The notes below the pieces were generated by a model. The model was given only the letters and a program-made list of their open reading frames with translations, made no database searches and was not told the origin of the DNA. 64,000 bases of DNA, taken from assembly GCA_001600815.1 (NCBI GenBank), contig BCKZ01000016.1, positions 423,077 through 487,076 on the forward strand, written 5' to 3'. Below, in pieces: positions 1,180 to 60,437 of this stretch. The stretch's first letter is position 1. Each line of letters begins with the position of its first letter. This stretch comes from Alloascoidea hylecoeti. Its lineage: Eukaryota. Made by a program: the position numbers and the translations under genes.

Positions 1180-1251
1180 TCCGAAATAGTGTAATGGCTA
1201 GCACGGTCCGCTCTCACCGGGCAGATCGGGGTTCAATTCCCCGTTTCGGAG
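1180..1251 (+). tRNA. tRNA-Glu(CTC)
   Basis: Cloverleaf: acceptor TCCGAAA/TTTCGGA, anticodon arm GTCCG-CTCTCAC-CGGGC, T arm CGGGG-TTCAATT-CCCCG; followed by a T-run Pol III terminator. Confidence 0.95.
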
Positions 1252-43253: not shown

Positions 43254-43786
43254 TATCTGAATGCAATGCTTGCTCTCTAAAACTTTAAATATTGACTCGA
43301 AAACACTATAACCATAAACAAGTGATTTTCGAATGGCTGACATTATGACTCTTCCGGTTCTCAGCTACAATGATGAATTTTCTATTCTAAACTGAATAAA
43401 ACCAACTTTTCACAATTCAATCCACTGCAGTTTTGTCTTGCTGAGATTGTAAGATCTTATAAATTTAGATGTAAACTTTGTTATGATAGTCCAAAGGGAA
43501 GAGGAGAAAATGGATATGTAGGGTTGATTTCTTATTGTTACATACAAGCCTACCCGCCTATATAGCAGTAATATTATATTTTTTTAAAAAGAGTTATAAA
43601 CAACGTATGTATAATTAATAAATTTTAATTGAAATTAGCTGAGAAACGTAACCACTCAAATAATAACATGAACAAACAAAAACATTTATAGCCAATTCAT
43701 TTATTTATATGTTTATTTTTTCATTCAACTACATTGTCAGCGAAATATCTGACATCCTTGGACGAATACCACCTAATAATGATTCT

Positions 43787-45369
43787 TTAGTGACCATTCT
43801 CTTGAATAGGCGACTCTTCGGCATAGCCATCTTCAGTTCCATCTTCATCTTCATCAACACCAGCATTTTCATATTGTTGATATTCAGAAACTAAATCTTG
43901 TAGATTACTTTCTGCTTCTGTAAATTCCATTTCTTCCATTCCTTCTCCCGTATAATAATGTAAGTAGGCCTTACGTTTAAACATCACGGAAAATTGGGAG
44001 TTGGTTCTCGTAAAAACTTCTTGAATTGCCGTTGTATTTGCAATAAAAGTGGCTGATGAATCCAATCCTTCAGGTGGTGTATTACAAAGTGTTGTTTGAA
44101 TATTATTTGGAATCCATTCAACAAAATAAGGTGAGAATTTATTACGCGCTTTGTAGATTGAATCCTCAACCTCTTTCATTGATAATTTACCACGGAAATT
44201 AGTTGAAATACTTAAGTATCTACCATTATAGGGATTAGCATCAACCATAAGATTATTGGCCCTAAATAATTGTGCAACAAGTTCAGATGCAGATGATATT
44301 TGAAATTGTTTAGCATTTGCATCAAATAATGGAGCACAACCAATGCCAAAGAAATGAAGTCTGGGAAAGGGAACCAGGTTAACTGCCATCTTTCTTAAAT
44401 CTCCGTTTAATTGACCGGGAAAACGTAATGAAGTGGTGACTCCTGACATTGCTAATGATATTAAATGATTTAAATCATTGATACTTGGTGTTTTGATCTT
44501 CAATGTATTCATTGAAATATTGTAAAGCGCTTCATTGTCCAAACAAAATGTAGCATCAGAACAGTTAATTAATTGATTCATCGAGAGTACTGTATTGTAG
44601 GGTTCTGTAACTGTATCAGATACTTTCTGACTTGGCAAAATGGAATAAGTGGAGAGCATCCTATCAGGATACTCTTCTTGTACATTAGACAATAACAAAG
44701 TTCCAAGTCCAGATCCAGTACCACCACCTAAACTATGTGTCATTTGGAATCCTTGTAAGGAGTCACATTGTTCTGTTTCTCTTCTTATGGCATCCATTAC
44801 TTGCTCTACTAATTCGGCTCCTTCAGTATAGAAACCTTTGGCCCATAAATTACCAGCACCGGCATCACCAGAAATTAAATTATCAGGTCTGAATAGCGAG
44901 CCAAGAGTTCCGCTTCTTAAATTATCAATGGTACCAGGTTCCAAGTCAACTGCAACAGCTCTAGGGACATATTTTGAATTGGAAACCTCGCTGAAAAACA
45001 CGTCAAGCCTAGATGTCGTGAACCCTGATGCTGATCTACGCCGAAGAAACCCCTTCGAATCCACATTGTGTTCTTGAGAGATGGTTTCCCAAAAACTAGT
45101 AGCTATTTGATTTCTATATTTAATATACTCATAGACCCCCTCAAAGGGAGGTAGTGTAAATGAATTTGTTAGTTTGTTTCGATGATTTTAGTTATGATCT
45201 AATATGCGCAGATTGATGGGAATAGCTTTGGGCTAAGACACATCATGCATGATAATAAACCTCACGTACCCTAGTCATTTGTTAGTATAAAGATAAAATA
45301 AGAGATCCACAAAGACAGCAGTTATAACGTACCTGCTTGACCACATTGAATGGCCACTATTTCACGCAT
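43787..45369 (-). CDS. Divergent beta-tubulin, 3 exons including a 1-nt exon
   Basis: Exons 45369-45333 (37 nt), 45270 (1 nt), 45113-43787 total 1365 nt; MREIV, GQAGNQI, GGGTGSG, RFPGQLN and [10 protein letters not shown] motifs. Confidence 0.92.
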
Positions 45370-47353
45370 TTTTAACTAGATGATAGTTGGTATATATTTG
45401 TGATGAAAAATCATTGTTTATAAATTAAAAAAGTCACAATAAGGGTGTTGATTACCCGGATCATGCTAAATAATTAAAACAAATTATCACCTGTAACATA
45501 AACCCCTGACACAAGTGCTACTCTCTAGTCAATGTTGTAATCTGCCTTATATATCCAAGTGTAGGGTTATAAGTTATAATGATACACTGAGAGGAGGTAA
45601 AAGGACTTTAAAACACTAAGACATGGCCACTTTTATTTGTATGATTCAGCTTTCTTGATCTGCAGTTAGCGCTATATGCTAATTATCACGGCCAATTGCA
45701 ATTGTGATTACTTGTACAAGGTCTCCCGAAGCTACAATTAAATGATACTATGAAAAACTCCATTTCCAAGACCCCTAGATCTATACCTAATATAATACAC
45801 CATAATACACTCTAATGTCATAATACAAGTTATGATCCATATGTTTCCACTCTGTTACTGATATATCATACAATATATGATGTTATTGAAACATTATTAG
45901 TATTATATATATAAGGGATTGGGGAGATAGCTATACTATTTACGAAGCGTGTATTTGGTGCAATAGGAGTGTTAAGCAATATTAATCATTTAAAATATAT
46001 ATGATCAAGTAGTATCACCTGATTCGTGACTTAGGCCCAGGCTTAATATAATAATAATATTTGTAGATTAGCTAACGTTAACATGTCTATAATACTAATA
46101 ACCAAAAGCTTTAAATTTGGACAAATAAAACAAAATTGATCTTGAAGTGATATCGATGGGCTTGGGCTGTTCTCGATTTTCGAGTTGATATTATCATCTT
46201 GAAGTCTTTTGACTTTCATCAAAGCCCTAAAGCAATTATTGTAATGATCAGTATTAATAGCTAGCTAGGTGTCGTCTAAAACAACTAATACTCAGTAAGT
46301 ACTAAGTAATGATACTCACTTTATATGGTTCATATGCATTACTTGTGTAACAAATTATTAACGATAAAGTACATTAATATTGTCTACGTGCACGCATGTT
46401 TGATCGCAGGGCTGAAGTCATAAACAGTTAAAAATCTAAAAGACAACAATACGAATTCTCCCCTGCAGATGTCATGAGTACTATTTCACGTTCACGTATA
46501 TTATAATTAATTAGTTTTATCATTCTTTGATTGAGCTTGTAATATTATTTGTTTGGGAAATGGATTCCTTAAGATTTAGGATCATACTATTTTAGTATTA
46601 TGCTTTTGCAACAGTAGATATGTACGCATCGCCAGAGAATTAGATAAATGTAAAGCGATTGAATATATGTGTTGATATAATTAATTATAATTACAACTAT
46701 GATATGAGATTATGAATTATAACTAGAGCAATAAATTATAAGCTATTTAAATGGATTCTAGGTTTACCTACCCGATGCATGCAAGGTAATACTTATAATT
46801 GATGACGATCTAGCAAAGTTATATAATTATATAATTAATCAGAGTACAGAAATCTTTTTTATAGCTAGCAATTGTAATGTTGCACTATTTTTAAGCCAAG
46901 TTAATGGAAGTTCTCGATGGGATATCGTTAATCTGTCCTTCTAACGAAAATAACAAGTGTCATAATTATAAAAGTTGAAGAGGTGTTTTAATGGTTAATG
47001 AGATTATTAGAATAATGCACATCCTTTCTGGCTCTATTCAATTACGAGAGCAAAGTAATATCGGAGTAGCATTAATTCAACCTTATGCGGATCACGTGTA
47101 GATCGTTGAGATATAATAATGATAATTATAATACTTTCAAGTAACAGGATCCAAAACGGAAATAATGTGAGCCTTTAAGTAAAAGTGCTAATCAGCCCAA
47201 ACAGGACGCACATAATTAAAAAAGGCCTGAATCAATTGCCTGCAGAGGATAATTCCGGAACTTGCACTTCTGAAATTTCGGAACTGCCTCTTCCTAATTA
47301 GATATCAATAGATTTATTCCTCTTTGTGCCAATCATTTTTCATCTTTTTCACA

Positions 47354-49859: not shown

Positions 49860-49956
49860 CACCCACGGTGGGAGTCGAACCCACAATCTTCAGATTGCGA
49901 TCTAAAGAAACTCTTTTAGTAGAAGTCTGACGCCCTAACCATTAGGCTACGCGGGC
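49860..49956 (-). tRNA. tRNA-Arg(TCT) with 24-nt intron
   Basis: Minus strand GCCCGCG...TCAGA-CTTCTA[intron]A-TCTGA...GTGGG-TTCGACT-CCCAC-CGTGGGTG; T-run downstream. Confidence 0.93.
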
Positions 49957-59695: not shown

Positions 59696-59851
59696 TAATG
59701 GTTTGTTCAACGTTGTTCAACTTTGTTGTTGATGGTTTGGTTGACACTTGCAGCCATGACCATAAATGTTTTAATGCGTACGTCTGAGAACGGCGTACAT
59801 CTCGACACACTTTTCTTGCAAAAACATAAATTTTTCATTATCCTCATCACA

Positions 59852-60437
59852 ATGTCTACCACAACTGAAAACATCGATTCGAAGTCCCTCGAGCAATCCA
59901 GCTCTCAAGATGATGTAAGTAATTCTATTTGTTTGCATCTATTTGTCAGGCTTTTTACTAACAAACTAATAGCTACAGAGTATGACCGAACGAATGGCAG
60001 AAATGGAGGCAGAGGCTACTCGGTTGAGAGAATTGCAGACCTCTCTAGAACAAGAAACTTCTGCTGTGACAGAGTCCAAGGAAGATGTCGATGCCCGTTC
60101 AATTTACGTGGGTAATGTTGATTACGAGGCCACCTCGGAAGAACTACAGAAACATTTCCAGAGTTGTGGTGCCATAAACAGAGTCTCAATCATGCTTGAC
60201 AAGCACTCCGGTCATCCCAAAGGTTATGCCTACATTGAGTTTGCTGAGCCAAGCTTAGTTCCTCATGCTTTGGTTTTAAATGAAAGCGTATTTCGCGGTA
60301 GGAATTTGAAGGTTACCCCAAAACGTACAAACGTCCCACGCTTTCTTCGTGGTAGAGGTAGAGGAAGAGGGGGAAGAGGAGGAAGAGGATACAGAGGTGG
60401 TTTCAGAGGCCGAAGAGGTGGCTATAGACCTTATTAA
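59852..60437 (+). CDS. Nuclear poly(A)-binding protein (PABPN1/Pab2/Sgn1-like), 2 exons
   Basis: Exons 59852-59914 and 59973-60437; RRM ([17 protein letters not shown]), KRTNVP, RGG tail ending RPY. Confidence 0.9.

Follow-up and report, generated by a model that had tools for sequence, protein, structure and literature searches.

The window (the whole stretch of 64,000 nucleotides of Alloascoidea hylecoeti DNA that was analysed, contig BCKZ01000016.1) carries on its minus strand a beta-tubulin gene (45369-43787) that is predicted to comprise three exons of 37, 1 and 1327 nt, i.e. 1365 nt encoding 454 amino acids. Exon 1 (45369-45333, minus strand as for all features of this gene) begins with the ATG start codon (45369-45367), ends in GCAG and encodes 12 residues, its last base opening the Gly13 codon. 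Intron 1 (45332-45271, 62 nt) has a GTACGT 5′ splice site, a TACTAAC branch site (45287-45281) and a CTAG 3′ splice site; its branch A is 11 nt away from the end of the intron and 13 nt away from where intron 2 starts. The one-nucleotide exon is the G at 45270, second base of the Gly13 codon (G/G/A). Intron 2 (45269-45114, 156 nt) has a GTACGT 5′ splice site, a branch-like AACTAACAAAT (ACTAAC within AACTAAC, 45173-45168) and an ATATAG 3′ splice site. Exon 3 (45113-43787, 1327 nt including the TAA stop codon at 43789-43787) starts with A AAT CAA ATA, i.e. the third base of Gly13 followed by the codons of NQIATSFWE...GH. Its open frame of 441 codons matches, on its own, the Pfam domains Tubulin (3.6e-55) and Tubulin_C (2.3e-32). 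The genomic sequence holds the donor, branch site and acceptor of either intron whole, with GT at one end and YAG at the other in each case. The coordinates, intron lengths, splice signals and sum of exons (37+1+1327 = 1365 nt) given in a preliminary description of this DNA were found to be exact to the base.

All single GT..AG introns that leave exon 1 in frame with more than 400 open codons were listed for the window gene and for an orthologous locus, L002 (see below). According to this full enumeration, none gives GQAGNQ in either locus. The nearest single-intron product in the window uses a donor slid by 4 nt (45328, tac/GTTATA) and reads GQAG-T-NQI; the slid donor of L002 (GTATTT) leads to an inserted I. 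The other nearest product joins the first donor to an AG inside exon 3 and lacks GNQI. The one-nucleotide exon is the sole reading with canonical signals that restores both Gly13 and the frame, as had been proposed from the G+G+A arrangement. The mature mRNA predicted by this model reads ...GCAGGAAAT... and has no extra ACA codon. Leaving out the G at 45270 brings a stop 3 codons on in the window gene; this immediate stop, also part of the preliminary description, was confirmed by translation. It is not conserved, the same omission in L002 leaving 112 codons ahead of a stop. Retention of either intron leads to early stops in both genes. A junction between the first donor and an AG a few bases into exon 3 is in frame in both loci (L002, 2340-2507, product without GNQ; window, 45332-45103, product without GNQI); this is probably a coincidence, possibly a minor isoform.

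Single splice motifs are common in the window (35% G+C): GTACGT is found 10 times and TACTAAC 12 times when both strands are counted (128 kb). AGGGTAYGT is found once on the same 128 kb, at the one-base exon, for 0.52 occurrence expected; its chance is about 1e-3 per stretch of about 220 nt. The composite motif TACTAAC-N(3-30)-AGGGTAYG also occurs once in the window, at the same site, and in none of 100 shuffles. The signals were compared with those of introns verified in the same window, and they fit them. A Rab5/Ypt5-like GTPase gene (13752-12899, minus strand) has two short introns: a phase 1 intron (13621-13528; AAG/GTATGT..AACTAAC..TTAG) and a phase 2 intron located after FEIW (about 13454-13403; TG/GTAAGT..AAATAG) that splits a Trp codon into TG and G. 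A gene whose downstream exon resembles a rhodanese domain (..GVVLVDVREPEEYKQGTIP..) has a phase 0 intron of 129 nt (11554-11426, minus strand; CAG/GTATGT..AACTAAC..GTCAG). The +5 G is present in all five donors of the window introns checked (GTATGT, GTAAGT, GTACGT). The branch A of intron 2 lies 55 nt from the 3′ splice site, versus about 10-25 nt in the other introns of the window. GAG is a poor acceptor; the only two AGs between the branch site of intron 2 and ATATAG are both in GAG, and ATATAG is the first non-GAG AG past this branch site. A third GTACGT...TACTAAC(N10)TAG unit, 195 nt long (59778-59972, plus strand), is located right after an ATG and ahead of an open frame; it is possibly an intron placed in or close to a start codon.

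A hairpin enclosing both GAGs of intron 2 (about 45165-45127, minus strand) was considered as a structure shortening the distance from branch site to acceptor. It was dropped: with an MFE of -10.9 kcal/mol (z = -1.14; 27 of 200 shuffles as good), it is not better than shuffled sequences. The whole intron region gives a folding z of +0.74. An Rfam scan of the window with gathering thresholds found no intronic RNA gene; its only matches are two tRNAs located elsewhere. One is a tRNA-Glu (CTC; 1180-1251, plus strand). The other (49860-49956, minus strand, 97 nt) is called tRNA-Ser with the unusual anticodon ACT by ARAGORN; an intron inside this gene probably throws off the anticodon assignment.

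The sequence of the locus was compared with DNA contigs from two other runs, which may include the source of the window itself so that their independence is uncertain. A contig of 18,531 nt from run X1 covers 43700-45500 and a contig from run X4 covers 44236-45500, both with 0 differences and 0 gaps. An assembly indel appears unlikely, given that the same layout is found in L002. The metatranscriptome run X8 does not cover the region and says nothing on expression.

The best named relatives of the window protein (66-70% identity) are TBB2, the second beta-tubulin of Geotrichum candidum, reportedly described by Gold and colleagues in 1991, and proteins from Nadsonia, Trichomonascus, Magnusiomyces, Tortispora and Lipomyces. 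A search with N-terminal words retrieved 10 proteins, including one new clade member. In a quick maximum-likelihood tree of 44 rows, 16 canonical beta-tubulins stand apart from 28 proteins of GQAG type (SH-aLRT 100). The window protein falls inside the GQAG-type group, with G. candidum TBB2, and not among the canonical TUB2-type proteins; its branch is long (0.76), and given this length a relaxed constraint on the protein is possible. Considered jointly with the one-base exon, it is very probable from these comparisons that the window gene is a fast-evolving member of a second beta-tubulin lineage ("beta-2", GQAG type) of early-diverging budding yeasts. An extra, fast-evolving beta-tubulin with long branches has been reported in Yarrowia and Galactomyces (Zhao et al. 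2014, PMC5381371); the available part of that paper does not mention the intron structure of this paralog.

A comparison with orthologs, advised in the preliminary description, rests on a scan of metagenome contigs that gave 61 loci. The N-terminal side was examined in 35, the other 26 stopping short of the N-terminus. The site is uninterrupted in 29 of the 35 (mostly transcript-like contigs); two do not start from residue 1, three are distant tubulins with an intron elsewhere and one, L002, has an intron here. The L002 product shares 69% amino acid identity with the window protein (312 of 455 aligned columns) and is sister to G. candidum TBB2 in the quick tree (SH-aLRT 98). L002 shows the layout of the window gene, i.e. 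37 nt, intron, G, intron. Exon 1 (37 nt) ends in GCAG; intron 1 (69 nt) has GTATGT, three CTAAC motifs, a T-run and TTTAG; the one-base exon is a G (L002:2409); intron 2 (90 nt) has TATTAAC, a T-run and TTGTAG, and its donor is GTATGA, not GTATGT; exon 3 starts with A AAC CAA GTT. The motif AGGGTAYG is expected 0.20 time per 12.6 kb in L002. The two exons 1 are identical at 31 of 37 nt. A MAFFT alignment of the two loci aligns the exons, misplaces the one-base exon and is used here for exon identity only. The introns of the two loci show no similarity to each other (182 of 500 and 489 of 500 shuffles score as well). Since the introns cannot be aligned and the layout is the same, the internal pair of acceptor and donor, one base apart, appears to have been kept while the intron sequence was randomised. 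Conservation at the same codon is seen at the DNA level in one ortholog (L002); four more species are inferred from artefacts in gene models. An origin of the one-base exon by tandem duplication of an intron was also considered and finds no clear support. What introns 1 and 2 of the window have in common is limited to the branch motif ACTAACAAAT (score equalled in 37 of 500 shuffles). Those of L002 match better (3 of 500), but by their T-runs.

The deposited proteins of the clade carry marks at the same position. Of 153 tubulins retrieved, 119 start with M..REI; GQxGNQ is uninterrupted in 108 of these and the 11 exceptions are all gene models (five with insertions, all in the beta-2 clade, and six of exon-skipping type, two of which, P0098 and P0116, lack GNQI). 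Insertions between G and N are found only in these five models among the 119 tubulins. Considering only clade proteins with GQAG in their first 20 residues, 17 of 22 read GQAGNQ and 5 of 22 have inserted residues; the preliminary description had foreseen that gene predictors would mis-model the site, and these five deposited or called N-termini bear it out. The inserted residues are M in G. candidum TBB2 (P0037, GQAG-M-NQV), I in Nadsonia, T in Lipomyces tetrasporus, N in Dipodascopsis uninucleata and YISSS in Limtongia. By species, residues are inserted or missing in Nadsonia fulvescens, L. tetrasporus, D. uninucleata, Limtongia smithiae, Magnusiomyces and Yarrowia; exact models come from Trichomonascus, Tortispora, L. 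arxii, L. japonicus, Kockiozyma and D. tothii. A gene predictor unable to place a one-base exon, when it joins a phase 1 GTA(T/C/A)GT donor slid by 4 nt to a phase 2 acceptor, gives I or M (GGT AT+N), T (GGT AC+N) or N (GGT AA+Y). The four single insertions (M, I, T, N) are all among I, M, T, N and K, the residues that such a slide can give; by our own arithmetic, chance would place four random residues there in about 0.4% of cases. The artefact is predicted to insert T in the window protein and I in the L002 product; the latter does not match the M of the deposited G. candidum TBB2. The extra Met of this entry is nevertheless most likely a splice-model artefact at a one-base exon, the near-identical L002 giving GQAGNQV. 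In four further models (P0035, P0040, P0044, P0047), exon 1 is absent and the frame is read through the acceptor. In these four, as in the window and L002 frames read back in the same way, the residue before NQ is R or S (AGN; 6 of 6), which places an acceptor AG/N between bases 2 and 3 of the Gly codon (phase 2). These artefacts of protein models suggest that Nadsonia, Lipomyces tetrasporus and Dipodascopsis uninucleata have the one-base exon as well.

We consider it very likely that the G at 45270 is a real and conserved one-base exon of a beta-2 tubulin gene, and, as part of this explanation, that the layout was inherited and is not an accident of the A. hylecoeti genome (L002 and the model artefacts both point to this). 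The codon of Gly13, which belongs to the motif GQAGNQ of the GTP-binding T1 loop, would be split over three exons (G/G/A), with the single G flanked by two ordinary U2-type introns, each with a full set of signals of its own (5′ splice site, branch site, YAG acceptor). Recognition would be by intron definition, one intron at a time, with a separate reaction to remove each. The two reactions would not be simultaneous: the branch A of intron 1 is 13 nt, and its acceptor 1 nt, away from where intron 2 starts, which would be too close for a complex on each intron at the same time; removal would occur one after the other. Being short and the earlier of the two to be transcribed, intron 1 would most likely be the first to go. 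Joining donor 1 to acceptor 2 in one step would lose the G, shift the frame and yield a dead transcript. The available text of Guo & Liu 2015 (PMC4674806) argues likewise for APC11, with sequential removal under intron definition. More tentatively, and with somewhat more doubt than belief, the G/G/A split may be ancient in the beta-2 lineage: it would predate the split of Lipomyces, Nadsonia and Geotrichum, would have been kept for hundreds of millions of years and would have disappeared only where introns were lost all at once by way of spliced mRNA. Such a loss would account for intronless relatives that read exactly GQAGNQ.

Several readings do without a one-base exon. A single intron from the slid donor at 45328 (tac/GTTATA) to ATATAG would make the added Thr a genuine part of the T1 loop of the protein (GQAG-T-NQI). 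This intron is of GT-AG type and keeps the frame, and deposited relatives do read GQAG-M/I/T/N-NQ. We nevertheless regard it as quite unlikely: the donors GTTATA (window) and GTATTT (L002) have no +5 G and a perfect donor (GTACGT or GTATGT) lies 4 nt upstream; the inserted residue follows positions +3/+4 of the intron and is not conserved; 17 of the 22 clade N-termini and the 108 uninterrupted tubulins have no insertion; and the conserved internal AG/G/GTAYG is left unexplained. The reading by which donor 45332 is joined to AAATAG/CT (45103) is less likely still. Its product, in frame and from a GT-AG intron in both species (the L002 analogue uses CCAAG/TT and lacks GNQ), would lack GNQI. The codons thereby made intronic are precisely those for N-Q-I (window) or N-Q (L002), in a T1-loop motif that is universally kept. 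GQxGNQ is intact in 108 of the 119 tubulins, although the models P0098 and P0116 do lack GNQI, and ATATAG, the first non-GAG AG past the branch site, precedes the acceptor at 45103. The mature mRNA of the one-base exon would also result from a single intron that is non-canonical at one end (GT..TA up to 45115, or TA..AG from 45331), its internal signals being coincidental. This is highly improbable: a yeast with strict signals would have to use a non-canonical splice site, and branch site, YAG, G and GTAYG would have to coincide inside introns that are otherwise unalignable between the two species.

That the gene is a pseudogene, or that its frame problem stems from an assembly indel and is not biological, is held to be equally improbable. 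The long protein branch would suit a pseudogene; against it stand the 441 open codons with both Pfam tubulin domains, the identical sequence in the X1 and X4 contigs and the same architecture in L002. A further proposal of the preliminary description does not compete with the one-base exon but adds to it: skipping of the G would be a regulated switch to NMD that tunes the level of the paralog. The stop 3 codons after skipping in the window gene and the early stops after retention of either intron in both species are in its favour. It remains improbable, if less so than the readings above, as L002 runs on for 112 codons and as any frameshift would act alike, which leaves no sign of design.

One-base exons are already in print, in three gene families (plant APC11 and VPS55, Fusarium CYP621A). 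The tubulin case can be called striking for yeast splicing and relevant to annotation. If it is confirmed, several yeasts would have public models of the beta-2 paralog, among them the G. candidum TBB2 entry of 1991, that are off by one residue in the GTP-binding loop; neighbouring splice sites with mismatched phases would call for a rule of their own in annotation pipelines; and the genetics of yeasts would offer a way to study how splicing is ordered when an exon is too short for anything to bind. If the split is also ancient, it would be the oldest and most widespread one-base exon of fungi and the first in yeasts with rigid splice signals like those of S. cerevisiae, offering tractable genetics for the encounter of the spliceosome with a lengthless exon.

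The arrangement was compared with four known systems. A ratchet point of recursive splicing consists of AG/GT, i.e. a zero-length exon at which a 5′ splice site is regenerated from the upstream exon. The likeness, as generally understood, is stepwise removal of a long intervening sequence by means of an internal pair of 3′ and 5′ splice sites; the difference is that a ratchet point leaves nothing behind, whereas here the second 5′ splice site pre-exists and a base is kept. A zero-length recursive splice site was rejected, one G being retained in both the window and L002. Stwintrons (spliceosomal twin introns; Fekete et al. 2017, PMC5587772) likewise involve two consecutive splicing reactions at one site and are known in fungi, including early-diverging yeasts, according to the available text. 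However, in a stwintron the external intron has its donor, branch site or acceptor split by an internal intron, so that it exists only once the latter has been excised, and nothing is retained, whereas the tubulin introns lie intact side by side with one base kept. The kinship with stwintrons suggested in the preliminary description was not upheld: all signals of both introns are intact, none is interrupted, and by our own reasoning no nested two-step path leads to the correct mRNA. In Lipomyces, GUACGU is given as the ideal donor (PMC7138796, available part). The portions available of this stwintron paper and of two papers on Yarrowia introns do not mention tubulin, and the literature searched, most subscription journals being outside its scope, yielded no description of a one-base exon from any tubulin or any budding yeast.

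A microexon of 1 nt was described in APC11 of Arabidopsis (Guo & Liu 2015, PMC4674806), and 1-nt microexons of APC11 and VPS55 were traced across land plants (Yu et al. 2022, PMC8831610), where the accessible text ascribes intronless copies to loss via reverse-transcribed mRNA. As in the tubulin gene, the available parts of these papers describe a single base located between canonical introns, long conserved and absent from annotations, and propose sequential removal under intron definition. The differences are that these are plant genes, that the base of APC11 is an A and that the exons were validated by RT-PCR, reporter constructs and RNA-seq. Another parallel is the one-nucleotide exon of Fusarium CYP621A, AG/G/GT within a Gly codon (Nelson & Syed 2026, PMC12940212). 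Both are fungal and have AG/G/GT, with the G at the centre of a Gly codon that belongs to a conserved motif; both are conserved among orthologs, have intronless relatives that serve as length markers and are wrong at the site in public models. CYP621A differs in being a P450 gene of Pezizomycotina with RNA support at the level of reads; the tubulin gene belongs to a budding yeast and is read here from DNA. With its complete flanking signals, a base that is required for both frame and motif and the same codon split in L002, the tubulin case, as read from genomic sequence, matches the one-base exon kind.
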